From positions 12,685 through 76,684 of the IMG/VR virus record IMGVR_UViG_3300032083_003484: DNA of 64,000 nucleotides. The stretch is one strand, 5' to 3'. The notes beneath the pieces are model-generated. The model worked only from the letters and a program-made list of their open reading frames with translations, ran no database searches and was not told the DNA's origin. Shown one piece after another: positions 39,685-60,821 of this stretch (positions are counted from its first letter, which is position 1; each line of letters begins with the position of its first letter). The position numbers and the translations under genes are program-made. This DNA comes from a virus.

Positions 39685-39687
39685 TAG

Positions 39688-44079: not shown

Positions 44080-44101
44080 TATAAGGTACCTTTACTTATA
44101 A

Positions 44102-44311: not shown

Positions 44312-44323
44312 TATTGTATTCTC

Positions 44324-46206: not shown

Positions 46207-46240
46207 AATCCTCCTGTGAGTTGGCCCGGAAAGCCCGGTG

Positions 46241-46277
46241 TGTATATTAGACGAACGAGCGACGGATCTTATCCACT
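46241..46277 (-). promoter_or_regulatory. ECF-type promoter repeat, copy 1 (uvsE)
   Basis: AGTGGATAAGATCC-N10-CGTCTAATATAC on minus strand. Confidence 0.75.
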
Positions 46278-46361
46278 TTTCGAACGCTTTTTTCCGATAA
46301 GTTTACCGGTCCTGGCGGCGCAAGCGACCGACGACCAGTACGAGGCGTTCGGGGAGATGTC

Positions 46362-46571
46362 GTGAGGATACCGAAGTTACCTGACGGCTGGATCTGGCGT
46401 TTCGACGACGATGAGGAGATGCCCTCCTTCGACCTCTTCCATAACACCCTAGGATACCAGGGCTCGGCCTTCCGAGACTCTTGCGAGCCCGAAGGCTATG
46501 CCGGAGGACCGGTAGACTCTTGGCAAAGCGCCCTTGACCTGCTGGTGGAGATTAAAGTTCCGCTACACTAA
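46362..46571 (+). CDS. Small hypothetical protein in a GC-rich patch
   Basis: GGGGAG RBS + GTG; 69 aa. Confidence 0.45.
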   Translation: MRIPKLPDGWIWRFDDDEEMPSFDLFHNTLGYQGSAFRDSCEPEGYAGGPVDSWQSALDLLVEIKVPLH

Positions 46572-46653
46572 GGCCCCGACCCACCTACTCGGGACGTCGG
46601 AGTAGACGTCCTTCCTGCAGGAACCTGTCCAGGACGATCCTCGCAGTCCCTTC

Positions 46654-47232
46654 TTACCAAATCTTTTTATCAACTTCGCCAAAAACGGGTGTATCACCTG
46701 GCTTGATTGATACTACTTCTATCATTGCCGCAGTTAGCACCTCGGCATTATACCTTTCCGCACTTTGTTCTGCCCAGTCCCAACGAGAGTCAATATCGGA
46801 AGGCATACGATAATCGCACCACTTCATTTTATTTTCCTTGTCGATAAAAACACAAACAACGTGCCCGCTTAGCTTTCTAGTATCTCTTGATCGCATTTGG
46901 AAGAAAGAAAACCAAACTTTTAAAACTAGGTCAGATTTTAGTAGACAAGTAGCCCAGTAAATGCTATGATCATCACAGTCACCAATTAGTTCACCATTAA
47001 CGATTCTTTTTTGAATTTCAGTTGGGTGAGAGAGATTATCGAGCTTTCCTTCCCATTTATCTTTTCGGTACCGCTTGCCCCACTCTAGTCTTTCACCAAC
47101 TTCACTATACGTAGAAACTTTCTCAACAGGAAACTCGTTATTTTTTGTAACCTTCATTGTGAGCCCATACCACCACTTGCCAAAGTTCGGTATAAAGTTC
47201 CAAAAAAAGTAAAGTAATTTAATTAAAAACAT
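46654..47232 (-). CDS. Transglutaminase-like cysteine protease fold protein
   Basis: GDCDD...GHVVC...D triad pattern. Confidence 0.6.
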   Translation of the reverse strand: MFLIKLLYFFWNFIPNFGKWWYGLTMKVTKNNEFPVEKVSTYSEVGERLEWGKRYRKDKWEGKLDNLSHPTEIQKRIVNGELIGDCDDHSIYWATCLLKSDLVLKVWFSFFQMRSRDTRKLSGHVVCVFIDKENKMKWCDYRMPSDIDSRWDWAEQSAERYNAEVLTAAMIEVVSIKPGDTPVFGEVDKKIW

Positions 47233-47395
47233 TATTTTATTCTCCTTTATTAATTATTTATTCTTGCTAGCTATAAGGATTATGGTAAATACCACAAGCC
47301 ACAAAAAAGCAATTGCAAACAAAGTGCTTTGAACAACTAAATTGTTCTTTATTTTTTCTTTAATCATTCTATTTACCACAATACATTCCAATAAT

Positions 47396-48037
47396 ATGAA
47401 AACCCTATATAACATTCTAAGAACTGCTTTAAATAGTTTGCGCAACCCAAATGCGCCAGCAGAAGAGGAGACCGATGAAATGCCCAAGACTGATAGATTT
47501 AAAGAAATGAACCCTTTTGAAAGAATTGTAGATCGATTCAACAAGGCAGTTGTCGATCCACAGGACTATGAACTAACTATGGCTGGGTATCAATCTTATC
47601 TAGACGCCACAGGTATTGTTTTTGTTTCCGCCAAGGAGATGTGCACACCTCACCACCTTGATACTGCCTCTGAGTTGGGCTATGAAGCGTTTGTTCCGAA
47701 ACACGAATGGTGGGACAGGGGTGCTGCGCTAGCGTCCTTCTTCGACTATCTCAGGAAAGATTTAGGAAATCCGATTGTTGTAAGAAACTGGTGGCGCCCA
47801 GAAGATTATAATGAAAAAGTTGGCGGAGCAAAAGCCTCCGATCATATTGGCGCTTATGCTTTTGACATGGATTTCAAGACACAAGATGATCGCCGGCACG
47901 TTGAGGCGTTGTTGGAAGGTTTTTATAACGATCTAGAACTAGGAATGTCTTTAGGTTTAGGCGGTTATACTATCCATCTTGGCCTTCTTTCCGAACGTGG
48001 GAACAGACGCTGGTATTATAATAGCTACGAAAAGTAA
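47396..48037 (+). CDS. Peptidase M15A-type endolysin
   Basis: WWRPEDYNEKVGGAKASDH...AFD...IHL; start taken at MKTLYN after a CTATTTAC late-like motif (47369). Confidence 0.75.
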   Translation: MKTLYNILRTALNSLRNPNAPAEEETDEMPKTDRFKEMNPFERIVDRFNKAVVDPQDYELTMAGYQSYLDATGIVFVSAKEMCTPHHLDTASELGYEAFVPKHEWWDRGAALASFFDYLRKDLGNPIVVRNWWRPEDYNEKVGGAKASDHIGAYAFDMDFKTQDDRRHVEALLEGFYNDLELGMSLGLGGYTIHLGLLSERGNRRWYYNSYEK

Positions 48038-48058
48038 ACTTTAGAAAGCTTAATGATG

Positions 48059-48078
48059 TGCCCCCTTGAGCGGGGGCA
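48059..48078. terminator. Hairpin between convergent genes
   Basis: TGCCCCC-TTGAGC-GGGGGCA. Confidence 0.55.
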
Positions 48079-48084
48079 GTAAAT

Positions 48085-48198
48085 TTACTCTGCTTTCTTA
48101 AGAACGCTGAGGTATTTACGATAACACCACTTCAAGCCTTCCCAAACGAAAGGTGAAGCAACGGCGCCACAAACGACGCCCCACATAAATGCTGACAT
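48085..48198 (-). CDS. 37-aa membrane peptide MSAFMWGVVCGAVASPFVWEGLKWCYRKYLSVLKKAE (not in track)
   Basis: AAGGAG RBS; late motif at 48241-48250; TM helix and basic tail. Confidence 0.6.
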   Translation of the reverse strand: MSAFMWGVVCGAVASPFVWEGLKWCYRKYLSVLKKAE

Positions 48199-48274
48199 AA
48201 TGATACTCCTTTGCAAGCTGTGGTAAAAATCACCACTACAATAAATAGTTAAGTAAAGGTTTTAAAGTATTTTG

Positions 48275-49099
48275 TTATAAATAAGGCTTGACAATGTTAT
48301 TTGCCCTTAGAAAATTATTTATAATAGACGGACGAGCTGAAATTCCAAAACTATCAACAGAAGAATTTGAAGCAACTTGCAATCCAAACAGTTTTTCACC
48401 TAAATAAATTGCAGATCCGGATTGACCAGAAGATGTGGGAATAGAATGCATGAAAAAGTTGTTTCCATCTAAGTTATTTGGAAGCTGACAAAAGTCGTCA
48501 CACCAACCTCCCCAGTATCCTTCAAACAAAAGCAGCCCAAAAGAAGGAAACGTGCGGAAAAACCCTCTTGGTGCGCCCCAATTGCGAAGTTCAGCAAAGA
48601 TTTTTATGTTTTCTTCATCAGCAATAGCATAAATTTCATGATCAAAGTCGCCTTGAAGCCAAATCAAGCATAAATCAACATCCGGATTTTGCGCAACCAC
48701 CCAGCCATCACCGGTTTCGCCCGCCAAGTTCTCACCAGAAAAAGAATATTTAAAATTAACGCTATAATCAATGTGCTCTGGCTCCGGCCCAAACAAATCT
48801 TCGGGGTCAGAATGGCAAAAATGATCAACAGTTAAGATAAAACAGCCGTCTTCATCGCTTTTGATACAAACACCGCCGGCAGACCACCAGCCATAAGGTA
48901 TTTCATTGCCCTCAAAACGCATTGTAAGCGCTTTGGAGAGTTGAACATAGGCAAGGGCCGGGACAAAACCTTCGGAGGCAGCAGAAGACGTTTGAGGAAG
49001 ATTGTTTCCTTTACAATCAAACAAAGAAAAACAAAAAATCGCAATAAAAATCATTCGCCGCATAAAATAAATAGAAACCGCAAGTAAAAATAACCACAA
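48275..49099 (-). CDS. Trypsin-like serine protease, probably exported
   Basis: LTVDH, DLCLI, GQSGS catalytic motifs; hydrophobic N-terminus. Confidence 0.75.
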   Translation of the reverse strand: MWLFLLAVSIYFMRRMIFIAIFCFSLFDCKGNNLPQTSSAASEGFVPALAYVQLSKALTMRFEGNEIPYGWWSAGGVCIKSDEDGCFILTVDHFCHSDPEDLFGPEPEHIDYSVNFKYSFSGENLAGETGDGWVVAQNPDVDLCLIWLQGDFDHEIYAIADEENIKIFAELRNWGAPRGFFRTFPSFGLLLFEGYWGGWCDDFCQLPNNLDGNNFFMHSIPTSSGQSGSAIYLGEKLFGLQVASNSSVDSFGISARPSIINNFLRANNIVKPYL

Positions 49100-49105
49100 A
49101 ATTTT

Positions 49106-49291
49106 TTATTTATTTAAGCTTTCCCAAACTGTTTCAAATAAATAATGTAAAAACATCATCAAGAAAGTTAAAAAAATTGTAAGCGTTAAAGATTTTTTAA
49201 GTTCGCCAATCCAAATCCAAGAAACGGTACCGGCCACTGTGGTAGAAAAAATTCGCCAAACAATAACTTTGTAAATTAAAGGTTTTTTCAT
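49106..49291 (-). CDS. Small membrane protein (DUF2061-like)
   Basis: KVIVWRIFST...HYLFETVW. Confidence 0.6.
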   Translation of the reverse strand: MKKPLIYKVIVWRIFSTTVAGTVSWIWIGELKKSLTLTIFLTFLMMFLHYLFETVWESLNK

Positions 49292-49300
49292 AATTTAGAT

Positions 49301-49332
49301 AAAAGAAAAGGGCGGGAAGAACCCGCCCTTTC
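49301..49332 (-). terminator. Rho-independent terminator after the ECF sigma gene
   Basis: AAAGGGCGGG-N5-CCCGCCCTTT with U-tract on minus strand. Confidence 0.8.
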
Positions 49333-49356
49333 ATTATAACATAACTTTAAAGTTGT

Positions 49357-50508
49357 TTATAGACCCAAAGTCTCTTTTACGACTGCAGCAATTGTTTCTT
49401 CTAAAGAAAGTTCTTCGTTTTTGCGATATCTTTCATCTGGTCGCCTAGGAAACATAGATCCTCGCCTAGTGGCTGTCGCCGGCGTTGGGTTTGGTGATGA
49501 GCCGGCCATTGATCCTCGCTTTGGAAGTTCATAGTCCAAGTCGATTCCGGGCTCCATAAGGTCGGCATCCGGATCTTCTGGCATACCCTGGTATTCGGCG
49601 TCCTCATAGTTCATAAGATCATCTATAGCGCCCTCAGCTTCTTTCTCGCTCCGAAATCGGAACCCAGGCCGAACGTTGTGTATTTCTTTAAACATATCTG
49701 AAAAAAGATCGTTTAGATAATCCAAGCCCATTTCCGGCTTGGCTGTTTCGCCTTCTCGGATATCGCCGGGCTTCACACCACCAGCAAATGCGATTCGAAG
49801 AGTTTTCTTGACGCCTTCATCACCTGGAGAGTGCAGCCATCGATCAATTCTTTCACGTGACCGAGAAATTTCACGACCAACTTCTCCGACAGTGTTATAA
49901 CCAAGCTCGACACGCAGTTCCTCGACTGACTTTGGATCGGCCGCAAACTGATTTAGGGTAACAATTTTTTGCCGATCGTTGAGGTTGACTTTGTCATCCT
50001 TGATTGCTTGGACCATAGCATCGAAAGCTTCATTGCGCTCTTTGTCAAGAAGAATCTGCTCGGGGTTCTTAATTTTTGGAACCAACGGATAGATTTCGCT
50101 CTTGTCGGACATACTTGTGATATCCGGCTCGCCTTCAGCTGCGCCGCCACCGGCAAAAGGAAGCTCTTTGCGTCCTGCTCGGAAACTGTCAATTAATGCA
50201 TTTTTCACAATAGCGCCGGCCCAAGTGGAGAATGCAGAATCTCCTCGGAACCCACCAATTTGAGTCATGATTTTGATAAGGGCGCTTTGCATTGCGTCCT
50301 CGGCGTCAGCTTCGTTTCCGCCGGCTAGCTTAAGCGCAAGAAAACGATGCTTTTTTGAAAGTCTGGTTAGAAGTTCTTCCATTGCCGGACTATTTGGGTT
50401 TTCTTTGGCTTTGGCAGCAAGCGCTTCCATGCTGTCCCCTTTCTCTTCATCAATGCGTGCAATCTCCTCTTGGATGATTTGCAGCAGCCTAGTTTTCTTG
50501 ATTTTCAC
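49357..50508 (-). CDS. ECF (group 4) sigma factor with N- and C-terminal extensions
   Basis: sigma2: ADAEDAMQSALIKI..GGFRGDSAFSTWAGAIVKNALIDSFR; sigma4: LNDRQK..SVEELRVELG..VGEVGREISRSRERI; N-terminal MKIKKTRLLQIIQEEI tag. Confidence 0.88.
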   Translation of the reverse strand: MKIKKTRLLQIIQEEIARIDEEKGDSMEALAAKAKENPNSPAMEELLTRLSKKHRFLALKLAGGNEADAEDAMQSALIKIMTQIGGFRGDSAFSTWAGAIVKNALIDSFRAGRKELPFAGGGAAEGEPDITSMSDKSEIYPLVPKIKNPEQILLDKERNEAFDAMVQAIKDDKVNLNDRQKIVTLNQFAADPKSVEELRVELGYNTVGEVGREISRSRERIDRWLHSPGDEGVKKTLRIAFAGGVKPGDIREGETAKPEMGLDYLNDLFSDMFKEIHNVRPGFRFRSEKEAEGAIDDLMNYEDAEYQGMPEDPDADLMEPGIDLDYELPKRGSMAGSSPNPTPATATRRGSMFPRRPDERYRKNEELSLEETIAAVVKETLGL

Positions 50509-50540
50509 TTTAAAAAACTCCTTATAAGTTATGTTTTGTT

Positions 50541-50550
50541 ATAAATAGTT
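50541..50550 (-). promoter_or_regulatory. Late-type promoter motif ACTATTTAT upstream of the ECF sigma gene
   Basis: ATAAATAGTT (+) between the upstream terminator and the GTG start. Confidence 0.6.
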
Positions 50551-50560
50551 AGTCAAAACA

Positions 50561-50590
50561 AAAAAAGCCCCGCCGAAAAAGGCGGGGCTT
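50561..50590 (-). terminator. Rho-independent terminator
   Basis: AAGCCCCGCC-N6-GGCGGGGCTT + U-tract. Confidence 0.8.
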
Positions 50591-50611
50591 GGATTCGCAA
50601 GATTTTTTTTC

Positions 50612-50872
50612 TTAGAAGTCTATGCCGTCATCGTTTGCCGGGAGGGCTTCGGAAGTTTCCGCATTTCTTAGCGCATCAACTTCTGCATTTGCGTGAGCGG
50701 ATGCCTCATCGACATCAGCACCGGCAGCTTCGGCTTCTTCGAAAGCGCTTTTCCAAAATTCCCACTCTGCGTCGGTAAGACCTTCAATTGGCATGGGGCT
50801 TTTGGATTCGGCAAGAGCAGCCTCAAGCTCTTCTTTGATAATCTTGACAAGTTTTTGTTTTGTGATTTTCAT
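50612..50872 (-). CDS. Acidic protein with MKITK...IIKEE tag (putative internal head protein)
   Basis: MKITKQKLVKIIKEELEAALAE. Confidence 0.6.
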   Translation of the reverse strand: MKITKQKLVKIIKEELEAALAESKSPMPIEGLTDAEWEFWKSAFEEAEAAGADVDEASAHANAEVDALRNAETSEALPANDDGIDF

Positions 50873-50893
50873 TATAATCTCCTTTAGTTTATT

Positions 50894-52474
50894 TTAATCC
50901 AAGCGAGCAAGTCGTGGGTTTGGGGCAATTGAAAGCTCGGCATCACCAATAAGCAGCACTTCACCTTCGGTCCAAGCAACAAGCGGGATTGGGTTTCCGT
51001 TAACAGCGTCGTGCCCGCCGGAACCAATTGTTGGGACAGCAGAAACACCAAAGTTGGCCAAGGGTGAAAGCTCATTGGCGGCGCAAAGCCCATCTTGATT
51101 AAAATCTTGCCAAACAACCAACCCAGAAAAAATTTTATCATTTTTTGTTATAAGGTTGTCCATGTCTAAATCAAAAGAAGCAAGGTGGTCAAATCCGTCG
51201 GTCCAATCGCCTTGAACGTTTCCAAAAAGTTCTGCGCCGGAAGTTATAACGCCATCACCATTCCAATCATAAGCCAAAAAGCCGTCGCCACCATTAGGCC
51301 ATGCAATTGCTTGTTCTCGGCCAATGTTGTATAAGTCAAAGTTAACTCCATCAACAATCGAGCTTAATTCGATACCGTCGCCATCCAAGTCAATCACCAA
51401 CGGGTCACCAACGTTGCAAGGAATAACCCGAAACGCCGCAACAGCCGCAAGGGCCATTTCATCTTCCAAGCCTTGACGAACGCCTCGCTCATAATCGATT
51501 TGAGCTTGCGCCCACTGCAATGAAGCTTCGGCATTTGGTGGGGTATAGTCAGAAGCACAAAGAGGCTCGGCTTCCATGGCCATTCCAAGGCTGCCAAGGG
51601 CGTTGCTCATTGCCGGTTCGATAAAAGCTTCATTAGCATCGCAGATCTCGATAATTGGCATTTCAGGATAAGAAGGAGCAAACCCTCGTCGCTCCAATTC
51701 CAAATTAAAAGTTTGCGCAAAGTGCTGCCGACCGATTGCAATGCCTTTTATATAAGAGCTTTCCACCGGTGTGGGCTCAACGCTACAAAGGCCTCGGTTC
51801 ATTAGGTCGAAGCGAACCCGAACACGGTTATCTTCCAAGGCGCTAATTGCTCCTTGCTCATACCAAAACTGGGCCTCCTCAAAATGAATAGAGCCGGCGA
51901 TCGCACTTGTTAGCGGCGCAGCGTCCAATTCTTGTGTTAGGCTAGAATAAACTTCCACTTTTGCCATGTCCGCAAGATAATCGCAGGAAACCGAATTTGC
52001 TTGTTCAACATTATCGTAAAACTCCACAAAAGGGCAATCCGTTATTGATGCATCCAATCCGGCAAATAAATCTTCGTGAGAAAGGTTATAGTCCATTATA
52101 ATGTTGAGGTTTTGCAATTGAATGGCCATTTGGTCCAAGTAAAGCTCTGTGCCCAAATTCAAACCAATATTAATAGAGTCTCGGAGAATCTCGACCCGTT
52201 GAAGCTCGTCGGCGCTAAGGTCTTCTGCTTCCACGAAAGGATCGGCAGGGGGGTCAACAGGAGGCTCGACAGGAGGGTCAATTGGGTCTGCCGGGGGATT
52301 GGCAATTGGAGGTCGATCATCAGGTTGGGTGTCGATCGGTGGGTTGTCGACAGGCTCACAGCAGGGTCTAGGTTCGTTTGTTGTGCCTTCATATGAAATG
52401 TCCCCATCCGCAGCACAAGCGCCCATCACGCCAACCAAGCAAGCAGCGATAACGGTTGTTTTATAATTTTTCAT
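50894..52474 (-). CDS. Lipoprotein with C-terminal FrpC-type self-processing module
   Basis: Lipobox VMGA-C, Pro-rich linker, then DPLVIDLDGDGIE...DGFLAYDWNGDGVITSGAELFG...LVVWQDFNQDG..ANEL. Confidence 0.75.
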   Translation of the reverse strand: MKNYKTTVIAACLVGVMGACAADGDISYEGTTNEPRPCCEPVDNPPIDTQPDDRPPIANPPADPIDPPVEPPVDPPADPFVEAEDLSADELQRVEILRDSINIGLNLGTELYLDQMAIQLQNLNIIMDYNLSHEDLFAGLDASITDCPFVEFYDNVEQANSVSCDYLADMAKVEVYSSLTQELDAAPLTSAIAGSIHFEEAQFWYEQGAISALEDNRVRVRFDLMNRGLCSVEPTPVESSYIKGIAIGRQHFAQTFNLELERRGFAPSYPEMPIIEICDANEAFIEPAMSNALGSLGMAMEAEPLCASDYTPPNAEASLQWAQAQIDYERGVRQGLEDEMALAAVAAFRVIPCNVGDPLVIDLDGDGIELSSIVDGVNFDLYNIGREQAIAWPNGGDGFLAYDWNGDGVITSGAELFGNVQGDWTDGFDHLASFDLDMDNLITKNDKIFSGLVVWQDFNQDGLCAANELSPLANFGVSAVPTIGSGGHDAVNGNPIPLVAWTEGEVLLIGDAELSIAPNPRLARLD

Positions 52475-52521
52475 TAATTTCTCCTTTATAATGGTGTTTT
52501 TATCGATAGTTTCGAATTTTT

Positions 52522-52869
52522 TTATAAGCTTCCACCTAATTCACGTGTTATTCGATCGAAGAGCCAGTCGAAAGGGTCACCGTCTCTTGCCTTCTGCGTG
52601 CCATATGGCATCTCTCCGTTCTCACTATAGTGTTTGAGGAGCATATCATAGGGGCTGACCTCATATCCGTGTGAATCTTTGCGGTAAGCCGTCTCGAATT
52701 CTCTATCATCGCCATCAAGGAAAGCTAGGGTCGCTTCAACCTCTTGGGGATTGAAGCCATACAGAAACTTAAGCCGAGCCCGATTCATGTCACCACCTTC
52801 AGTTTCATGCATAACAGCAGAAATTTCTTCTTTAATAACTCCAATTAGGTATTCTTTTGTGATTTTCAC
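52522..52869 (-). CDS. MKITK...VIKEE-tagged protein (putative internal head protein)
   Basis: MKITKEYLIGVIKEEI; late motif at 52913-52922. Confidence 0.6.
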   Translation of the reverse strand: MKITKEYLIGVIKEEISAVMHETEGGDMNRARLKFLYGFNPQEVEATLAFLDGDDREFETAYRKDSHGYEVSPYDMLLKHYSENGEMPYGTQKARDGDPFDWLFDRITRELGGSL

Positions 52870-52949
52870 TTTGTTTCTCCTTTAAAATTTTTCTGAAAAT
52901 GTTTCTTGCCTTATAAATAGTTTCGAATATTTTTTAAATTTTTTGATGC

Positions 52950-53504
52950 CTAAGAGGTTTGTTCGTCGGAAAGAAAAGCCTCAACGGGCCGGAACATTAC
53001 CACAACGGCAAAATTTGGTGTTTCATAGTACATCCCATCGGCCATACCAGGATTTTTTATCCATTTTCCTTGGTTTTCGGTGCCCCAAGCGCCTTGTTGC
53101 CATCCGGAAACCTTTTTTAGCACCTGATCCATGTCAAGAATGTTATAGTTTTCTTTTCGGACTGCCGCTTTCACCCCCTCCGGGTCATCGACAAGATTAT
53201 AAATGTCGGCCGTGGGAACGTTTGCTGTATAAAGCGCCTTGCTAGCGAAAAAACTTTCTTTCTCTGCTGGATTCACATAGAAAAACGTGCGAGGAACCGC
53301 CGAAATCGCCAAATCTTTTTTTGAATAACCCATTTTTCCGAATTTCTCTGGATCAAGCAAGATTTTTTCTTTTGCGTTCTCCGGAGATTCTTGAGTAAAG
53401 TGGTATAGCGTTGTATTGCCCCCTTCGGAAGGAATGCGTTCCTCTGAAGCTTCAACCAAAATCTCCTCAACCAAAGTTTCAAGGTAGTGCTTTGTGAGCT
53501 TCAT
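52950..53504 (-). CDS. MKLTK...LVEE-tagged protein, possible ADP-ribosyltransferase fold
   Basis: Tag followed by TLYHFT...TFFY...LY...DG; late motif at 53536-53544. Confidence 0.5.
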   Translation of the reverse strand: MKLTKHYLETLVEEILVEASEERIPSEGGNTTLYHFTQESPENAKEKILLDPEKFGKMGYSKKDLAISAVPRTFFYVNPAEKESFFASKALYTANVPTADIYNLVDDPEGVKAAVRKENYNILDMDQVLKKVSGWQQGAWGTENQGKWIKNPGMADGMYYETPNFAVVVMFRPVEAFLSDEQTS

Positions 53505-54266: not shown

Positions 54267-54289
54267 TTTCTTTCCTCTTATGTTGGGTT

Positions 54290-54326
54290 CATTAGTTAGA
54301 CGAACGGGGGCCGGATCTTATCCACA
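54290..54326 (-). promoter_or_regulatory. ECF-type promoter repeat, copy 2
   Basis: TGTGGATAAGATCC-N10-CGTCTAACTAATG. Confidence 0.8.
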
Positions 54327-54560
54327 ATTTTCCGGAAACATTTCATTCCACATTGCCGGAGTCATCCCGGTCATGATGAATTCCCGACGGTCGGCGTCAA
54401 GGAAAGGGAGCGCATCTTGGATCAGGGCGCCGGCTTCCCATTTACGCAGGCCCTGTAGCAGCTCGGTAAGACTAACCCGCCCGAATGGCATATCGGAATT
54501 GGTTCGTGAGTGCCAAGCGTGGATGGTTCCGTCTCGATTGATAGTAAAAGTGCAATTCAT
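54318..54560 (-). CDS. Small early protein
   Basis: GGAG RBS; LIQDALPFLDADRREFIMTG; stop lies inside promoter copy 2. Confidence 0.7.
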   Translation of the reverse strand: MNCTFTINRDGTIHAWHSRTNSDMPFGRVSLTELLQGLRKWEAGALIQDALPFLDADRREFIMTGMTPAMWNEMFPENCG

Positions 54561-54574
54561 AAAGTATACTCCGA

Positions 54575-54640
54575 TTAGAGGGTTGCGAGGGCGCCGACAA
54601 AGCCAAGAGCGAGATAGCTTGCGAAAAGTAGTTCAATCAT
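54575..54640 (-). CDS. 21-aa hydrophobic peptide MIELLFASYLALGFVGALATL (not in track)
   Basis: AAGGAAG RBS right after promoter copy 3. Confidence 0.55.
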   Translation of the reverse strand: MIELLFASYLALGFVGALATL

Positions 54641-54659
54641 TTTCTTCCTTTGTTGGGTT

Positions 54660-54696
54660 CATTAGTTAGACGAACTAGACGAGGATCTTATCCACA
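54660..54696 (-). promoter_or_regulatory. ECF-type promoter repeat, copy 3
   Basis: Exact consensus. Confidence 0.8.
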
Positions 54697-54710
54697 TAAA
54701 GTTTGATTTA

Positions 54711-54902
54711 TTACGAAATCAAGCCAAGCAACTCTTGAAAGTCCTCGACTCGCCAACCTTGATAAGCTACCGATCGGATCCCGTCATCGTCTTCGGCAAA
54801 GCCTTGATCGGTGGCGAGCACTTCGATATCGGCAACCAAACCGGGCTTAAGGTGGAGGCAATTGTTGATCCACTCGGCGGCTTCTTGAATAGTGCGCTGC
54901 AT
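54711..54902 (-). CDS. Small early protein (MQRTIQEAA...)
   Basis: AAGGAAG RBS before ATG 54902; track start 54926 is inside the promoter. Confidence 0.65.
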   Translation of the reverse strand: MQRTIQEAAEWINNCLHLKPGLVADIEVLATDQGFAEDDDGIRSVAYQGWRVEDFQELLGLIS

Positions 54903-54923
54903 TTTCTTCCTTTGCGTTGGGTT

Positions 54924-54960
54924 CATTAGTTAGACGAATAAGACGAGGATCTTATCCACA
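54924..54960 (-). promoter_or_regulatory. ECF-type promoter repeat, copy 4
   Basis: Exact consensus. Confidence 0.8.
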
Positions 54961-54965
54961 TAAAA

Positions 54966-55169
54966 TCAAAGTACGTTGCGATCTGTCTTATAGAAATGCC
55001 ACTTGATCGATCCATCTTTCTGGCGAACCTTCTGGATGATCCGATCATATTCGGTCACCGTCCGCATATGCATCTTTAATTGACGTTCAGCGCCCTTGCC
55101 TCGAAAGCTCTTGGTCAACTGTCCGTCTTGATAGAGTTCGTATCCGATGGTTCGTTTGGTTCTTTTCAT
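54966..55169 (-). CDS. Small basic early protein
   Basis: AAGGAAAG RBS; 67 aa. Confidence 0.65.
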   Translation of the reverse strand: MKRTKRTIGYELYQDGQLTKSFRGKGAERQLKMHMRTVTEYDRIIQKVRQKDGSIKWHFYKTDRNVL

Positions 55170-55191
55170 GTTCTTTCCTTTGTGCTGGTTT

Positions 55192-55228
55192 CATTAGTTA
55201 GACGATCAAGTCGAGGATCTTATCCACA
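55192..55228 (-). promoter_or_regulatory. ECF-type promoter repeat, copy 5
   Basis: Exact consensus. Confidence 0.8.
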
Positions 55229-55256
55229 TAAAGTGGCGACCGGGGGCCGATTTCTA

Positions 55257-55382
55257 TCAGTCCCCCCAATCCCCAAAGAAAGCCTGATCCAGCTCTTCCG
55301 CTTCGGCTTCACAGCTAGCGCACGGCCACTCATCTGAAAGGGGCTCAAGGCAGATCTCGCAAGTGTCTTCGAAAGTGTCCAT
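55257..55382 (-). CDS. 41-aa acidic zinc-finger peptide MDTFEDTCEICLEPLSDEWPCASCEAEAEELDQAFFGDWGD (not in track)
   Basis: Same AAGGAAGAAA leader as neighbouring cassettes; CxxC..CxxC. Confidence 0.65.
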   Translation of the reverse strand: MDTFEDTCEICLEPLSDEWPCASCEAEAEELDQAFFGDWGD

Positions 55383-55518
55383 TTTCTTCCTTTGTGATGG
55401 GTTCAGGTCCAAGTGTGGCGTGCAAGGGATTCTCGCCCAACCTGCGCAAGCGCAGTTTAAAACCGACCAATACGGCGCACCCCGTAAGTGTGTAAGGGTT
55501 AGCAGGTGTTTCCCGCTT

Positions 55519-55555
55519 CATTAGTTAGACGAACAACGGGCGGATCTTATCCACA
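55519..55555 (-). promoter_or_regulatory. ECF-type promoter repeat, copy 6
   Basis: Exact consensus. Confidence 0.8.
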
Positions 55556-55646
55556 TAAAAGCAATAAAAGTGCTCGACGGGGGCCGATTACTGTAACCTA
55601 CCGTAATCATTGGACTTTTCATCTTTTATCACTTTATTTCACTTTA

Positions 55647-55683
55647 TGTGGATAAGATCCGGCCTTCGATCGTCTAACTAATG
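55647..55683 (+). promoter_or_regulatory. ECF-type promoter repeat, copy 7 (divergent from copy 6)
   Basis: Exact consensus on + strand. Confidence 0.8.
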
Positions 55684-55754
55684 AGAGACGGGAGAGCGAC
55701 GACAAAGCGGCAACGCCAAGTCAGCCGAATCGAACTGAAGAAAACTGAACTTTC

Positions 55755-55791
55755 TTTGGATAAGATCCGGCGCTTAATCGTCTAACTAATG
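55755..55791 (+). promoter_or_regulatory. ECF-type promoter repeat, copy 8
   Basis: TTTGGATAAGATCC-N10-CGTCTAACTAATG. Confidence 0.8.
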
Positions 55792-55835
55792 TAACGGGGC
55801 TCAGCCGCCCTTTCTTTCTACCCACGAGGTAAACA

Positions 55836-56282
55836 ATGGCTAATCAGAACTTCAAGGCAATCGCAATGGCTCAACTCGGATACACGCTGCGAGACGTTCG
55901 CATCGAATCCCGCCGTGAGGAGATTTACGATCTCACCGCTTCGCTTGCTGCCGAGGCTCGCCGCACTCGTGAGACGGACACCGTTCGTCAATCGACTGTC
56001 GCAAACGTCCTTATGGGCTTTGTCGGCTTCTCAACCGACCCGGATCAATACGGTCCGACGTGTGAGGACGTTCACAACGTCTTGCTTGAAGGCGGTTCGA
56101 ACGTCAAGCGCAATGCGGTTGCGCAGCACCTCGCCAAGCTCAGAGCTGGCGGCTTCATCGACTCGGCTCGCAAGATGGAATGCGAACCGGGCAAGCGGGG
56201 GGCGCCTCCGGTGTTCTTCTTCCTGACCTCAAGCGAGGATGATTTCGCTTCGGTCCTCTCCGGCGAGACGGTCGCCAAGTAA
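55836..56282 (+). CDS. Putative winged-helix DNA-binding protein
   Basis: GAGG RBS; RNAVAQHLAKLRAGGFIDS...GKRGAPPVFF wHTH-like pattern. Confidence 0.6.
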   Translation: MANQNFKAIAMAQLGYTLRDVRIESRREEIYDLTASLAAEARRTRETDTVRQSTVANVLMGFVGFSTDPDQYGPTCEDVHNVLLEGGSNVKRNAVAQHLAKLRAGGFIDSARKMECEPGKRGAPPVFFFLTSSEDDFASVLSGETVAK

Positions 56283-56290
56283 GGCGGCTC

Positions 56291-56310
56291 GGGGGCTTCG
56301 GCCCCCTTTC
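56291..56310 (+). terminator. Rho-independent terminator
   Basis: GGGGGC-TTCG-GCCCCC-TTT. Confidence 0.8.
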
Positions 56311-56341
56311 ACTTTTCCCCTAAACTTTTTGGAGCTTCGCT

Positions 56342-56593
56342 ATGTATGATCTTACCATGGCAGTAATGAACGAACTTGATCAAGAACTTGTCCGACGGTC
56401 TGAAGCGAGGCAGCTGGAACTAGAACAGGCGGCCATGACTGACTGCGAGGATATTGTCGCTGGTTGGTGCGACGTTGCTTGCCTGGACCGAACAAATAGG
56501 GAGGTTTTGGTATACGAAGATTGGTGCGATTGTTGCCAAGCCAGATGGCAGGACGCTTCGCCGCATTGGACTGAAATCGGCCGATCGGAATAA
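56342..56593 (+). CDS. Small Cys-rich acidic protein
   Basis: GGAG RBS; 83 aa. Confidence 0.55.
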   Translation: MYDLTMAVMNELDQELVRRSEARQLELEQAAMTDCEDIVAGWCDVACLDRTNREVLVYEDWCDCCQARWQDASPHWTEIGRSE

Positions 56594-56963
56594 AAACAAA
56601 ATCGCCAATCGTCGCTCCGGTGGGGCGGCGTGCAGCGGGGGCCGAAAAACCTAAAAACAAAATCGATGGGGGCCTCTCCTATCGTAGTCGGTTTATTCGG
56701 CCCCTTATTTGTTTCAATAAGGGGTTTAATTTTGTTTTATATATAACGTAACGGTTAGTTTTGCTTTAGTCTTCCCTTACCTTTCCTCTACAGGCTTTCT
56801 TGTTATTCTGTTTTCTTTGATCTGGAATGGTTGATGGTTTGAATAGGGTTCTCATAACCTCGTGATAAGGGTTGCGTCGGGGCTTAGTTGTTTTCTTTTT
56901 GTTCTTGTTAGACATTTGTTTTGTTTTATTTTTTCTTTGATCTTGTTTTGTTTGCCGTTATAG

Positions 56964-57046
56964 TGCACCCTGGTGGAATCGAACCACTCGCTCTCCTTCC
57001 ACCTAGTTTGAGATCAGTTTAGAAGACTGATGGCGGTGCAGGGTGC
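56964..57046 (-). tRNA. Non-canonical tRNA-Arg(TCT)-like RNA (8/4 acceptor/T stems, no D arm, long variable arm)
   Basis: GCACCCTG/CAGGGTGC-A, TCAGT-CTTCTAA-ACTGA, GTGG-TTCGATT-CCAC. Confidence 0.7.
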
Positions 57047-57068
57047 TTTATATAGATCCTAGGATAGT

Positions 57069-57503
57069 TTATACCTCTACTAGTTTGTATTTCTTTCCAT
57101 CAATCTCAATTACTTTATTTGCGCATCCTTGAGTTTGAGCTTGGTGTTCTTTTTCGGTAAGATTCTTTCCGTTTAGATACCACAGTTTGGTTCCGTTGGC
57201 ATTTTCAACAGCAGGGCCATCTTCACGGTGGCACTTGTCGTTTAGATACCACACTTTGGTTCCGTCGGCTAACTCAATAGCAGGGCCATCTTCACGGTGG
57301 AGATCTCCGTTTAGCCACCATTCTTTGGATCCGTTGGCCCTTTCAACAGCAGGGCCATCTTCACGGTTAAGCTTTCCGCTTAGATACCATTCTTTGTGTC
57401 CATTGGTATACTCACAAGCAGGGCCATCTTCACGGTGGTACTTTCCGTTTAGATACCATTCTTTGTCTCCGTTGGGCCACACTTTTACATTATATTCAAT
57501 CAT
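57069..57503 (-). CDS. HREDGPA-repeat protein, class A (4 repeats)
   Basis: 144 aa. Confidence 0.88.
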   Translation of the reverse strand: MIEYNVKVWPNGDKEWYLNGKYHREDGPACEYTNGHKEWYLSGKLNREDGPAVERANGSKEWWLNGDLHREDGPAIELADGTKVWYLNDKCHREDGPAVENANGTKLWYLNGKNLTEKEHQAQTQGCANKVIEIDGKKYKLVEV

Positions 57504-57504
57504 T

Positions 57505-57939
57505 TTATGCTTCTACTAGTTTGTATTTCTTTCCGTCGATCTCAATTACTTTGTTTGTACATCGACTAGTTTGATCTTGGTGTTCTTTTTCGGTAAGTTG
57601 CTTTCCGTTTAGCCACCATTCTTTGCCTCCGTCGGCTAACTCAACAGCAGGGCCATCTTCACGGTGGCGCTTGTCGTTTAGAAACCACAGTTTGGTTCCG
57701 TTGGCTAACTCAATAGCAGGGCCATCTTCACGGTGGAAATTTCTGTTTAGCCACCATTCTTTGTCTCCGTTGGAGCGCTCAACAGCAGGGCCATCTTCAC
57801 GGTGGAGATCTCCGTTTAGCCACCATTCTTTGTCTCCGTTGGCCCTTTCAACAGCAGGGCCATCTTCACGGTGATACTTTCCGTTTAGATACCATTCTTT
57901 GCTTCCGCTGGGCCACACTTTTACATTATATTCAATCAT
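57505..57939 (-). CDS. HREDGPA-repeat protein, class A (4 repeats)
   Basis: 144 aa. Confidence 0.88.
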   Translation of the reverse strand: MIEYNVKVWPSGSKEWYLNGKYHREDGPAVERANGDKEWWLNGDLHREDGPAVERSNGDKEWWLNRNFHREDGPAIELANGTKLWFLNDKRHREDGPAVELADGGKEWWLNGKQLTEKEHQDQTSRCTNKVIEIDGKKYKLVEA

Positions 57940-57940
57940 T

Positions 57941-58306
57941 TTATGCTTCTACTAGTTTGTATTTCTTTCCGTCGATCTCAATTACTTTGCTTGTGCATCC
58001 TTGAGTTTGAGCTTGGTGTTCTTTTTCGGTAAGCTCCTTTCCGTTTAGGAACCACACTTTGTCTCCGTCGACCCTTTCAACAGCAGGGCCATCTTCACGG
58101 TGATACTTTCCGTTTAGCCACCACATTTTGTCTCCGTTGGCCCATTCAACAGCCGGGCCATCTTCACGGTGGAGATCTCCGTTTAGATGCCAAGATTTGT
58201 GTCCGTTGGCAAACTCAAGAGCCGGGCCATCTTCACGGTGAAGCTTTCCGTTTAGAAACCATTCTTTGGTTCCGTTGGCATGCACTCTTACTTTATATTC
58301 AATCAT
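57941..58306 (-). CDS. HREDGPA-repeat protein, class A (3 repeats)
   Basis: 121 aa. Confidence 0.88.
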   Translation of the reverse strand: MIEYKVRVHANGTKEWFLNGKLHREDGPALEFANGHKSWHLNGDLHREDGPAVEWANGDKMWWLNGKYHREDGPAVERVDGDKVWFLNGKELTEKEHQAQTQGCTSKVIEIDGKKYKLVEA

Positions 58307-58307
58307 T

Positions 58308-58673
58308 TTATGCCTCTACTAGTTTGTATTTCTTTCCGTCGATCTCAATTACTTTGTTTGTACATTGACTAGTTTGATCTTGGTGTTCTTTTTCGGTAAG
58401 CTGCTTTCCGTTTAGATACCACCATTTGGTTCCGTTGGCCCTTTCAACAGCAGGACCATCTTCACGGTGGCGCTTTCCGTTTAGCCACCATTCTTTGGTT
58501 CCGTTGGTATACTCAATAGCAGGACCATCTTCACGGTGGCGCTTTCCGTTTAGCCACCATTCTTTGTCTCCGTTGGCCCTTTCAATAGCCGGGCCATCTT
58601 CACGGTGAAGCTTATCGTTTAGATACCATTCTTTGGCTCCGTTGGGCCACACTTTTACTTTATATTCAATCAT
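58308..58673 (-). CDS. HREDGPA-repeat protein, class A (3 repeats)
   Basis: 121 aa. Confidence 0.88.
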   Translation of the reverse strand: MIEYKVKVWPNGAKEWYLNDKLHREDGPAIERANGDKEWWLNGKRHREDGPAIEYTNGTKEWWLNGKRHREDGPAVERANGTKWWYLNGKQLTEKEHQDQTSQCTNKVIEIDGKKYKLVEA

Positions 58674-58674
58674 T

Positions 58675-59040
58675 TTATGCCTCTACTAGTTTGTATTTCT
58701 TTCCGTCGATCTCAATTACTTTGTTTGCACATCCTTGAGTTTGATCTTGGTGTTCTTTTTCGGTAAGCTGCTTTCCGTTTAGCCACCATTCTCTGTGTCC
58801 GCTGGCTAACTCAATAGCAGGGCCATCTTCACGGTGGAGAACTCCGTTTAGCCACCATTCTTTGGTTCCGTCGGCTAACTCACGAGCAGGGCCATCTTCA
58901 CGGTGGAGAACTCCGTTTAGCCACCATTCTTTGTCTCCGTTGGCCCTTTCAATAGCCGGGCCATCTTCACGGTGAAGCTTATCGTTTAGATACCATTCTT
59001 TGCGGCCGCTGGGCCATACTTTTACTTTATATTCAATCAT
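58675..59040 (-). CDS. HREDGPA-repeat protein, class A (3 repeats)
   Basis: 121 aa. Confidence 0.88.
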   Translation of the reverse strand: MIEYKVKVWPSGRKEWYLNDKLHREDGPAIERANGDKEWWLNGVLHREDGPARELADGTKEWWLNGVLHREDGPAIELASGHREWWLNGKQLTEKEHQDQTQGCANKVIEIDGKKYKLVEA

Positions 59041-59041
59041 T

Positions 59042-59338
59042 TTATGCTTCTACTAGTTTGTATTTCTTTCCGTCGATCTCAATTACTTTGCATGCACATC
59101 CTTGAGTTTGATCTTGGTGTTCTTTTTCGGTAAGTTTCTTTCCGTTTAGATACCATTCTTTGTGTCCGCTGGCTAACTCAATAGCAGGGCCATCTTCACG
59201 GTGGCACTTGTCGTTTAGATACCACAGTTTGGTTCCGCTGGCATACTCATTAGCAGGGCCATCTTCACGGTGGCGCTCTCCGTTAACAAACCAAAATTTG
59301 TCTCCGTTGGGCCACACTTTTACTTTATATTCAATCAT
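59042..59338 (-). CDS. HREDGPA-repeat protein, class A (2 repeats)
   Basis: 98 aa. Confidence 0.88.
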   Translation of the reverse strand: MIEYKVKVWPNGDKFWFVNGERHREDGPANEYASGTKLWYLNDKCHREDGPAIELASGHKEWYLNGKKLTEKEHQDQTQGCACKVIEIDGKKYKLVEA

Positions 59339-59368
59339 TTTTTGTTTGAGCTTTATGGTTTTTATTGG

Positions 59369-59629
59369 TTAGCGCTTTGGAGCATACTTTGGATGAATAC
59401 AAGCATTGGCATACCTTGTAGCAATTCCAACATGACATGAAGTTGTTTGAGATACAAAGTGTGGCGCTCTATGTTCTAGTGCTACTTTGTTTCCATTCTC
59501 GGAAGTAAACCCAATAAGAAGATTGTATGAATAAAGGTTGCTTCCATCCGTGTGAAGTGAGTGGCGACCATTTCGTGCGCTTTCACTATTAGCCCAAGCG
59601 TTGACAACTTGTTCATTTCTTTTAGCCAT
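59369..59629 (-). CDS. Small early phage protein
   Basis: AAGGAAAG RBS; LYSY...SQTTSCHV. Confidence 0.7.
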   Translation of the reverse strand: MAKRNEQVVNAWANSESARNGRHSLHTDGSNLYSYNLLIGFTSENGNKVALEHRAPHFVSQTTSCHVGIATRYANACIHPKYAPKR

Positions 59630-59659
59630 TTTCTTTCCTTTCTTTGTGGTTTGAAGAAG

Positions 59660-59690
59660 TGGAACCTCTCGGGATCGAACCGAGGATCCC
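59660..59690 (-). ncRNA. tRNA minihelix-like element (acceptor + T arm)
   Basis: GGGATC-CTCGG-TTCGATC-CCGAG-A-GGTTCC-A immediately after promoter copy 9. Confidence 0.5.
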
Positions 59691-59693
59691 TCT

Positions 59694-59730
59694 CATCAGT
59701 TAGACGATCAAGCGGAGGATCTTATCCACA
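59694..59730 (-). promoter_or_regulatory. ECF-type promoter repeat, copy 9
   Basis: TGTGGATAAGATCC-N10-CGTCTAACTGATG. Confidence 0.8.
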
Positions 59731-60216
59731 TAAAACGCCGGTTTCGTCAATTAGTTTGCCGCTTTGTTCCTGGGATAGTTTATACCTATACCAGTTTCCT
59801 CTTTTTGACGTTCTACGCTTATGACAGTTCGCACATACAACGTCGCATTTATCTATTTCTTTTTTTATGGTCTCGATCGCATAGCCATTAATGATCATTC
59901 CTGCTACTTCGTATTTCTTTTCGTATTCCGGTAAATGATCAAACTCCATAACAATGGGATCCTCTTCGCCACAATCAACACACGGATGATCTAACAGGTA
60001 TTCATACGCCCATTTTTTGTTTCTTTCTTTATGTCTAAGGTTTGTTTCATACACTGCCCTTTTATGCTCGGCAGTATTTTCTTTATAATACTTTCTTGAT
60101 CTCTCCTTAGAGCATTCTCGGCAAATACTATTAAGTCCGTCTTTTTTACCTTTATTCTTATTAAACTCAGTGGGGCTTTTCATCTCGCCGCACGTATAAC
60201 ATTTCTTCGTTTTCAT
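59722..60216 (-). CDS. HNH endonuclease with N-terminal zinc finger
   Basis: CYTC..CREC; CVDCG...EFDH...VVCANCHKRRT; late motif at 60245-60253. Confidence 0.85.
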   Translation of the reverse strand: MKTKKCYTCGEMKSPTEFNKNKGKKDGLNSICRECSKERSRKYYKENTAEHKRAVYETNLRHKERNKKWAYEYLLDHPCVDCGEEDPIVMEFDHLPEYEKKYEVAGMIINGYAIETIKKEIDKCDVVCANCHKRRTSKRGNWYRYKLSQEQSGKLIDETGVLCG

Positions 60217-60305
60217 AGTATAGTTCTCCTTTTTAACTACTACTATAAATAGTATGCTAAATGACTTTTAACTATACTTTTTTGTTTAAACACTACTTTT
60301 TTTAG

Positions 60306-60378
60306 TGGGACGCCGGGAGATCGAATCCCGAACCTGCGGATTAAAAGTCCGATGCTCTACCAGTTGAGCTAGCGTCCC
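60306..60378 (-). tRNA. tRNA-Lys(TTT)
   Basis: GGGACGC/GCGTCCC-A, GCTC-AACTGGTA-GAGC, CGGA-CTTTTAA-TCCG, CGGGA-TTCGATC-TCCCG. Confidence 0.92.
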
Positions 60379-60460
60379 GTATTTGGTTTTGTTTCAGATC
60401 TTGGTGATCTTAACACTTAATGAAGATCTAATAAAAAAATAATGTAAAAGTATAAAAGCA

Positions 60461-60498
60461 TTAAAAGGCCGATGCTCTACCAACTGAGCTAGCGTTCC
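60461..60498 (-). pseudogene. 5' half duplicate of tRNA-Lys(TTT)
   Basis: 60461-60516 is an imperfect direct repeat of 60341-60396, including the upstream flank; 3' half absent. Confidence 0.7.
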
Positions 60499-60523
60499 GT
60501 ATTTGGTTTTGTTTCAATTAGAA

Positions 60524-60607
60524 TACCGGGTGCGGGACTCGAACCCGCAAGATCATAAAGATCGGGAGATTTTAAGTCTCCTGCGTTTGCCATTTCGCCA
60601 ACCCGGC
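60524..60607 (-). tRNA. tRNA-Leu(TAA)
   Basis: GCCGGGT/ACCCGGT-A, GGAGA-CTTAAAA-TCTCC, long variable arm, GCGGG-TTCGAGT-CCCGC. Confidence 0.93.
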
Positions 60608-60638
60608 CGGCGTTCGTTCTCCACCGTCCCCGGTGGCT

Positions 60639-60675
60639 CATTAGTTAGACGATCGGGGGGAGGATCTTATCCACA
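60639..60675 (-). promoter_or_regulatory. ECF-type promoter repeat, copy 10 (tRNA cluster)
   Basis: Exact consensus. Confidence 0.8.
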
Positions 60676-60784
60676 CAAAGTGAAAAAAACGTCCGGCCGG
60701 GGTGATTTGTTTCAATAGCGAATAGTTTCAATCGCCGGGGGCCGAGATCTTTGTTTCAATTCATTTGCATTAATTGGCGTTATT

Positions 60785-60821
60785 TATGGATAAGATCCCT
60801 TCTTTATTCGTCTAACTTATG
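60785..60821 (+). promoter_or_regulatory. ECF-type promoter repeat, copy 11 (divergent from copy 10)
   Basis: TATGGATAAGATCC-N10-CGTCTAACTTATG. Confidence 0.75.

Follow-up and report, generated by a model that had tools for sequence, protein, structure and literature searches.

An RpoE-like sigma factor with a T4-type leader and a probable promoter class of its own in a distant T4-like marine phage: a candidate for delivery in the virion

Phages are known to control the first minutes of infection in two ways, through strong sigma70 promoters or through a virion RNA polymerase, and several phages, including T4 (gp55), SPO1 (gp28 and gp33/34) and phiEco32 (gp36), produce sigma factors that act within the infected cell. 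The principle by which a phage sigma factor redirects the host core RNA polymerase has been mentioned previously (PMC7318152), and a 2026 review notes no more than that jumbo phages lacking an RNA polymerase carry sigma homologs, which likely cooperate with the polymerase of the host (PMC13282480). In T4, IPI-III are loaded via a 10-residue N-terminal capsid targeting sequence (CTS), gp21 cleaves after Glu in L/I-X-E, and Alt is trimmed at both ends, ejected, and modifies the host RNA polymerase (PMC9026906). Here we describe a locus on a 64,000-nucleotide stretch of viral DNA (hereafter the window) that is a combination of two known kinds: a phage extracytoplasmic function (ECF) sigma factor with its own regulon, and T4-type leader-tagged cargo. 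What is established for this locus is the identity of the sigma factor, a promoter class together with the genes that it serves, the late-type promoter ahead of the sigma gene, and a shared leader under selection. That the sigma factor is also packaged, processed and ejected into the next host, a proposal for which we see a roughly even chance, would follow by analogy with T4 CTS cargo and Alt.

The window comprises bases 12685 to 76684 of a 76.7-kb IMG/VR viral contig that is rated 42% complete and lacks a head module. Its gene set, which includes baseplate wedge proteins of the gp6, gp25 and gp53 kinds, a weak gp55-like open reading frame (ORF), PhoH, an exonuclease and glycosyltransferases, places it by sequence with an uncultured, marine and distant T4-like myovirus. 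Two relatives encode a sigma factor that is 83% identical: G001 (154.9 kb, 85% complete) and G002 (168.9 kb, 93% complete), the latter of which was retrieved entire and serves as the main near-complete comparison genome. Almost every G002 gene lies on the same strand, and its products include a large terminase, portal, major capsid protein and tail sheath as well as DNA polymerase, a gp32-like single-stranded DNA-binding protein (SSB), UvsX, ribonucleotide reductase (RNR) and a DNA methylase. The closest cultured phages are Microcystis phage Mel-JY01, Flavobacterium phage immuto and Rhodothermus phage RM378, with major capsid protein identity of only 36-41%. A megablast comparison of the region with cultured phages gave no match, and a tblastn search of a phage collection with the sigma factor (E 1e-3) matched none of the nearest cultured relatives and only one unrelated fragment.

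Identity and setting of the sigma factor

A sequence-only reading of this DNA had proposed that the gene at 49357-50508 encodes a complete ECF sigma factor, and profile and fold comparisons agree in upholding the proposal. Specifically, residues 56-113 match Pfam Sigma70_r2 (E 6e-11), NCBIfam TIGR02937 (sigma70-ECF) spans residues 42-226 with 51 bits against a cut-off of 43, and hhalign comparison with a canonical ECF sigma factor gives 98% probability over residues 35-226, through both domains and including the region-4 helix-turn-helix. With a profile of 16 homologs, the closest matches of solved structure in the PDB are AlgU and E. coli sigmaE (E 3e-15), and the top Foldseek matches, E. coli sigmaE, M. 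tuberculosis SigE, AlgU and SigW, are whole ECF sigma factors aligned over approximately 200 columns. In the AlphaFold model, both domains reach a predicted local distance difference test score (pLDDT) of ~70-80, and residues 112-150 form a disordered linker. According to TIGR02937, hhalign and Foldseek, the protein has region 4 and lacks regions 1.1 and 3; phmmer, for which region 4 alone is too divergent, returned only noise from the PDB when given that region by itself. Taken together, these comparisons assign the product, on sequence and predicted fold, to the RpoE/AlgU-type ECF (group IV) sigma factors as a complete member. It is encoded by the sole Sigma70_r2 gene in either near-complete genome. 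No T7-type RNA polymerase was found in the relatives by a search that likewise gave nothing in its control genomes, and no RNA polymerase domains were found in the large unknown proteins.

E. coli sigmaE (RpoE) and P. aeruginosa AlgU, which are closest to the phage protein in sequence and fold, share its two-domain ECF fold. Unlike them, the protein described here is phage-encoded, has no evident anti-sigma gene beside its own, and carries a 21-amino-acid (aa) leader, a C-terminal extension of ~150 aa and a conserved tail.

The same reading placed the sigma gene between two terminators and behind a late-type motif that also precedes virion genes, and this arrangement was likewise found, with hairpins on both sides and the motif ACTATTTAT in front of the gene (Table 1). 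The upstream terminator and the late motif are kept in 25 of 25 relatives examined. Nine copies of ACTATTTAT occur in the window, all on the minus strand, against 0.68 expected, and they include copies ahead of the giant tail gene (8603) and of the gene that follows the gp55-like ORF (21286). All 17 copies in G002 are on the coding strand; head, tail and baseplate genes have one at 26-41 nt ahead of their starts, and in that genome the sigma gene and every leader-tagged gene have the motif at the same distance. Exact 8-mer enrichment in intergenic DNA brought out only the late motif, the ECF-type motif described below and the ribosome-binding site. The late class as a whole, ACTATTTATA, is likely read by the candidate gp55-like late sigma factor. 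Judged by its promoter, the ECF sigma factor would be made with the virion genes only. Directly downstream of the sigma unit, the window encodes a protein with a trypsin-like peptidase domain and a hydrophobic N-terminus (48275-49099, minus strand; Pfam Trypsin_2, E 7e-7).

The ECF-type promoter class and its probable reader

The sequence AGATCC-N10-CGTCTAA is present in 11 exact copies in the window against 0 expected (none in 100 shuffles), and these copies extend to a 42-nt consensus, TTATGTGGATAAGATCC-N10-CGTCTAACTAATGA. With a weight matrix derived from the window and G002 together, all sites reach 46-71 bits and nothing falls between 14 and 46 bits. G001 and G002 contain 19 sites each; those of G002 are confined to 76-145 kb and are absent from the structural blocks (0-76 kb and 145-169 kb). 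The G002 sites precede the SSB-UvsX-RNR unit, a tRNA with the DNA polymerase gene, the DNA methylase gene and an ATPase/HNH unit, as well as tRNAs, UvdE and many small ORFs. This distribution indicates a pre-replicative, auxiliary regulon, the content of which resembles the early and middle genes of T4. The earlier claim that the motif stands in front of small genes, tRNAs and uvsE stood as regards its 11 copies and failed at several sites that have no clear ORF; moreover, the repair gene is not T4 uvsE but UvdE (Pfam PF03851, E 3e-67). The promoters at 55525-55553(-), 55649-55677(+) and 60787-60815(+), each without a convincing ORF, may drive small RNAs; Rfam gave no match at these places.

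Promoters recognized by E. coli sigmaE have the form GGAACTT-N16-TCAAA, followed by a discriminator of 5/6 nt and preceded by A/T-rich DNA (PMC1312014). The phage sites read GGATAAG-N16-TCTAA in 11 of 11 cases in the window and 19 of 19 in the relative, with a T-rich stretch upstream and a conserved CTAATGA at the expected start. The ECF promoter geometry that had been proposed for the motif is therefore of the sigmaE type, and the phage class shares with sigmaE and AlgU promoters a -35 heptamer, a 16-nt spacing, a -10 element of the form TC(A/T)AA (TCNAA), a short discriminator of 5/6 nt and an A/T-rich upstream stretch. Unlike those promoters, it lacks the AAC core of the -35 element, which reads GGATAAG or GAATAAG. 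The AA in this element is essential for sigmaE (PMC1540707), and the lack of the AAC core here suggests a specificity that is related to that of sigmaE but distinct.

The residues expected to contact the -35 element have changed to match. In the structure of sigmaE region 4 bound to DNA, R176 reads the G at -35, S172 the base at -34 and R171 the C at -31, while F175 touches -33 (PMC1540707). The corresponding phage residues in the hhalign alignment are R216, R212, G211 and S215, with R212 and R216 lying in the recognition helix VGEVGREISRSR at the places of S172 and R176, and by this alignment the loss of R171 fits the loss of C at -31. Additionally, sigma alleles drawn from a metagenome scan for distant homologs made it possible to compare protein and promoter; sigma gene and motif occur together in every locus with enough flank, which is what the proposed check of co-occurrence across related genomes had called for. 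Arg occupies the -34 contact place in allele A (the window and L023), which is found with 11 and 9 GGATAAG sites, in allele B (L027-L029; 11, 6 and 6 GGATAAG sites) and in allele B' (L040 and L042; GGATAAG at 8 and 2 sites), even though alleles A, B and B' are very different elsewhere in sequence. Ser is found at this place in allele A' (L031), with eight GAATAAG sites, and Thr in L034, with one; L035, which belongs to allele A' by its N-terminal part only and is truncated before region 4, so that the residue is not seen, has 11 GAATAAG sites. The contact residue thus tracks the promoter, Arg going with GGATAAG and Ser or Thr with GAATAAG, a covariation that supports the link between sigma factor and motif without being decisive.

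On these grounds we think it probable that the phage sigma factor reads the ECF-type motif, and we infer from sequence that it would bind the host core RNA polymerase and start transcription at these promoters.

Several further observations concern the promoters and the transcripts that follow them. The T-rich upstream stretch was considered as a general terminator tail and rejected, a strong hairpin being present in only 1 of 16 cases; it is read instead as UP-like DNA. All 11 window promoters (for example 54296-54324) contain a GATC within a GGAT-N3-ATCC palindrome in the spacer, and an N6/N4 DNA methylase of G002 (130113-131078) is itself under an ECF-type promoter; methylation state might tune these promoters. 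Just downstream of the promoter at 59700-59728, the minus-strand transcript of 59640-59700 contains the T-arm-like GGTTCGATCCCGAG, where ARAGORN calls no tRNA. Paralogous repeat proteins with a recurring HREDGPA unit (53835-54266 and 57069-59338, minus strand) are encoded under ECF-type promoters, and many metatranscriptome contig joints at these paralogs point to variation in copy number between strains. Four marine metatranscriptome runs compared with 44000-62000 consist of assembled contigs that end at the repeated promoter cassettes and carry no information on transcription start, strand or timing. Elsewhere, the window encodes a full-length transfer-messenger RNA (tmRNA; 39685-39995, minus strand; Rfam, 105 bits) with the tag ANNNVEFDSVALAA, which adjoins tRNA-Met and tRNA-Asn; an Rfam scan of 36000-64000 returned tRNAs and the tmRNA and nothing else.

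Conserved ends, tagged proteins and exchanged cores

The first 21 residues of the sigma factor are almost invariant among the 16 homologs, while identity in their cores is no more than 35-50%. Of the 22 leader codons, 11 show synonymous and five conservative differences between lineages, and such conservation through many synonymous changes indicates that the peptide itself is under selection. The last 18 residues show the same pattern of synonymous change and conserved peptide. The sigma leader sites I-Q-E and I/L-D/N-E are invariant, the I-Q/K-E leader site is likewise invariant, and (I/L/V)-x-E is present in every tail variant.

The leader had also been described as common to the sigma factor and three neighbouring genes, and this proved correct for those at 50612-50872, 52522-52869 and 52950-53504. 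In G002, a leader profile search identified eight tagged proteins, six of them clustered around the sigma gene; all eight are late proteins with unrelated bodies, late-type promoters and a short N-terminal leader ending in L/I-X-E. The same genome encodes a gp21-family prohead protease (Peptidase_S77; 166588-167211, E 3e-28). One tagged protein, of 75 aa, lies between the portal and this protease, a position that is held in T4 by gp67 and gp68, and has the same promoter-leader cassette as the cluster on the sigma side; a tblastn search with it against cultured phages gave no match. Another lies upstream of the large terminase. Taken together, these findings support a tie between the leader and the head module, in a phage that encodes a protease of the gp21 family. 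As with IPI-III and Alt of T4, the tagged genes are late and clustered, with unrelated bodies behind a short N-terminal leader ending in (I/L)-x-E and a gp21-family protease at hand. Unlike the T4 CTS, the phage leader is ~20 aa long and differs in sequence, and the cargo would be a sigma factor.

Between these two ends the gene is a mosaic: comparison of the window with L026-L047 shows five or more highly dissimilar sigma cores (249-394 aa), some of them with an acidic/basic extension of ~150 aa, set between the same leader and tail. The leader DNA of alleles A and B is identical, which indicates recent swapping of cores between fixed ends. If the protein is injected, this exchange between invariant termini would reflect its adaptation to different hosts.

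The point at which one metatranscriptome contig departs from the window, 50515, coincides exactly with the 5' edge of the sigma gene. Within the cluster of tagged genes, a predicted lipoprotein of 526 aa (50894-52474, minus strand), with the lipobox LVGVMGAC and a C-terminal calcium-binding-like DGDG repeat region, has no leader, and the motif upstream of it is ACTATCGAT rather than ACTATTTAT.

Table 1. Features of the sigma locus and promoter sites (window positions unless G002 is named)
Feature	Position	Strand	Remarks
ECF (RpoE/AlgU-like) sigma factor gene	49357..50508	-	383 aa, GTG start; Pfam, NCBIfam, PDB profile, Foldseek, hhalign
Sigma leader, codons 1-22 (MKIKKTRLLQIIQEEIARIDEE)	50443..50508	-	I-Q-E and I-D-E sites fit the T4 gp21 rule L/I-X-E
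Sigma region 2 (residues ~27-114)	50167..50430	-	
Sigma region 4 (residues ~149-226)	49831..50064	-	AlphaFold pLDDT ~80, hhalign, Foldseek
Conserved C-terminal tail (ELSLEETIAAVVKETLGL)	49360..49413	-	second possible propeptide
Intrinsic terminator upstream of sigma unit	50565..50590	-	10-bp stem, T run; conserved in relatives
Late-type promoter motif ACTATTTAT before sigma gene	50541..50549	-	33 nt upstream of start codon
Intrinsic terminator downstream of sigma gene	49306..49332	-	strong terminator-like hairpin
Leader-tagged 86-aa acidic protein	50612..50872	-	
Leader-tagged 115-aa protein	52522..52869	-	late motif at 52913-52921
Leader-tagged 184-aa protein	52950..53504	-	late motif at 53536-53544
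Candidate gp55-like late sigma factor	21301..22005	-	weak match, PHROG 234, E 4.5e-4; no Pfam match
ECF-type promoter before UvdE (45277-46206)	46247..46275	-	
ECF-type promoter before 143-aa repeat protein (53835-54266)	54296..54324	-	
ECF-type promoter, small-ORF cassette	54666..54694	-	
ECF-type promoter, small-ORF cassette	54930..54958	-	
ECF-type promoter, small-ORF cassette	55198..55226	-	
ECF-type promoter	55525..55553	-	58-aa ORF or non-coding RNA downstream
ECF-type promoter	55649..55677	+	no ORF ahead of next promoter
ECF-type promoter before 148-aa ORF 55836-56282(+)	55757..55785	+	
ECF-type promoter before paralog array 57069-59629	59700..59728	-	
ECF-type promoter before tRNA-Leu and tRNA-Lys	60645..60673	-	
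ECF-type promoter	60787..60815	+	no convincing ORF after it
Sigma70-type sites, window	39286, 33787, 26085, 44678		
Sigma70-type sites, G002 (L011-L019)	146805, 144300, 131887, 125853, 115753, 115075, 109056, 92098, 76430, 69297, 63417, 50281, 2932		

Delivery in the virion weighed against other explanations

The explanation that we prefer supposes three promoter classes: the host sigma70-type class, the phage ECF-type class, (T)GGATAAG-N16-TCTAA embedded in the 42-nt cassette, and the late class. The RpoE-like phage sigma factor, acting on the host core RNA polymerase, would read the second of these and so drive UvdE, the tRNAs and the small-gene arrays, together with, in the complete relatives, the SSB/UvsX/RNR unit, DNA polymerase and DNA methylase. 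Produced only alongside the virion genes, it would be loaded into the prohead core by its leader, and perhaps its tail too, trimmed after Glu by the gp21-type protease, and carried into the next host with the phage DNA, where it would fire the ECF-type promoters at once, beside the host sigma70 promoters. We rate this whole chain, from late synthesis through packaging and injection to an ECF-type regulon, slightly below an even chance.

Comparison with described systems indicates what would set such a sigma factor apart. Like T4 gp55, SPO1 gp28 and gp33/34, and phiEco32 gp36, it would redirect the host core to a promoter class found only in the phage; unlike those factors, which are made before the class that they serve, it shares its regulation with the virion genes, yet the content of its regulon is pre-replicative. 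Like the virion RNA polymerases of N4 and of phiKZ/AR9, it would bring its own promoter specificity in the capsid (PMC13282480); unlike them, it would deliver only a specificity subunit of ~40 kDa and leave catalysis to the host core enzyme. Full-text literature searches yielded no account of a sigma factor delivered in the virion. Accepting this one as the first, trimmed at both ends and with an orthogonal regulon of 20 promoters that fires before any phage protein is made, is a step to which we give not quite half the odds.

Several observations weigh against this explanation. Firstly, the coding strand of G002 has 13 matches to the strict sigma70 consensus, TTGAC[AT]-N16-18-TA[TAC]A[AT]T, against 0.9 expected (local shuffles, maximum 3), and the other strand has two. 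Nine of the 13 lie within the pre-replicative region, sites being spaced through 76-147 kb; three form tandem pairs with an ECF-type promoter ahead of the genes for SSB, methylase and UvdE, and others are upstream of a block that ends in the gp55-like gene. Near-consensus sites, TTGACA-N17-TATAAT, often with a TG extension, are also strongly biased toward the coding strand. This bias suggests a host with a canonical primary sigma factor rather than one of the Bacteroidota type, whose -7 motif (TAnnTTTG) showed no enrichment upstream of genes. With such promoters, the host holoenzyme can begin infection and reach late transcription without the phage sigma factor; the argument for an obligatory injected sigma factor fails, and the idea in the sequence-only reading that it replaces sigma70-driven early transcription is contradicted. 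The phage sigma factor adds to sigma70 and is not a replacement for it, and two separate time classes would suit the tandem arrangement better than classes that fire together. Secondly, L/I-X-E sites are short, common by chance and weak on their own. Thirdly, the covariation falls short of being decisive because it represents about two evolutionary events and depends on the alignment, and L040 and L042, with Arg at the -34 contact place, still have a few GAATAAG sites (2 and 1). Finally, conservation over 42 nt at 46-71 bits far exceeds what one sigma factor needs; that of the spacer AAGATCC and of the start region is not explained by the sigma factor alone, and another factor or gene conversion may be involved.

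The alternative that survives best is a cascade without packaging, in which sigma70 of the host starts infection and provides for expression of replication genes and of the gp55-like factor, after which the late promoter makes the ECF sigma factor. The protein would act in the same cell, sustaining DNA-metabolism genes, tRNAs and small genes late; leader and tail would serve another purpose, or packaging would extend only to the other tagged proteins. The 13 coding-strand sigma70-type sites, some in tandem with an ECF-type promoter, argue for such a cascade, as do the position of the gp55-like gene downstream of sigma70-type and not ECF-type sites and the presence of only a late-type promoter before the sigma gene. 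Some replication genes of T4 also have several promoter classes, which offers a parallel to the tandem arrangement. What a cascade leaves unexplained is a 21-aa leader and an 18-aa tail that are better conserved than the sigma domains, and the presence of that leader on a head-module protein adjoining the protease. Moreover, small-gene arrays with one promoter per cassette are typical of early host takeover (compare PMC2839356), and expression of them late only would be odd. We regard the cascade as a serious reading that is nonetheless rather unlikely.

Considerably less probable, in our estimation, is that a host RpoE-like sigma factor, perhaps freed by envelope damage, fires the motif first and that the phage sigma factor is a later amplifier or a decoy. 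In its CGTCTAA -10 half, its N16 spacing and its A/T-rich upstream DNA, the motif indeed comes near the enterobacterial sigmaE consensus; however, its -35 element lacks the AAC core on which sigmaE depends (GGATAAG instead of GGAACTT; PMC1540707), the phage sigma factor has the matching contact changes G211, R212 and S215 for R171, S172 and F175, and the full motif is at chance level in bacterial genomes (two matches in 596 Gb, in a search that covered only the extended motif). The two matches were also considered as pointers to a host and rejected, neither being related to the phage.

Finally, that another phage factor, such as a binder of the GGAT-N3-ATCC palindrome or a reader of GATC methylation state, reads or co-reads the 42-nt cassette while the sigma factor has different targets is an explanation to which we give very little credence: the excess of information over the need of a sigma factor, the conservation of AAGATCC in both promoter lineages despite its place in the spacer, the one motif common to very different sigma alleles and the N6/N4 DNA methylase encoded by the phage would suit it, but no further enriched motif remains for the sigma factor to read, both the geometry and the covariation at -34 favour the sigma factor, and the palindrome is broken in the GAATAAG lineage.

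The defined regulon and the protein-DNA covariation are what this locus contributes. Even without packaging, it provides a fully defined, very high-information and apparently orthogonal pair of sigma factor and promoter, with natural specificity variants at -34 (Arg with G, Ser or Thr with A), that is directly testable in vitro without culturing the phage. It also presents a T4-like phage in which an ECF-type class covers genes of the kind that in T4 are served by MotA/AsiA-dependent middle promoters, as well as a clear example of modular exchange of protein cores between conserved terminal signals. If the sigma factor is injected, it would represent a third way for a phage to control the first minutes of infection, by means of a cargo that is small and easily exchanged.

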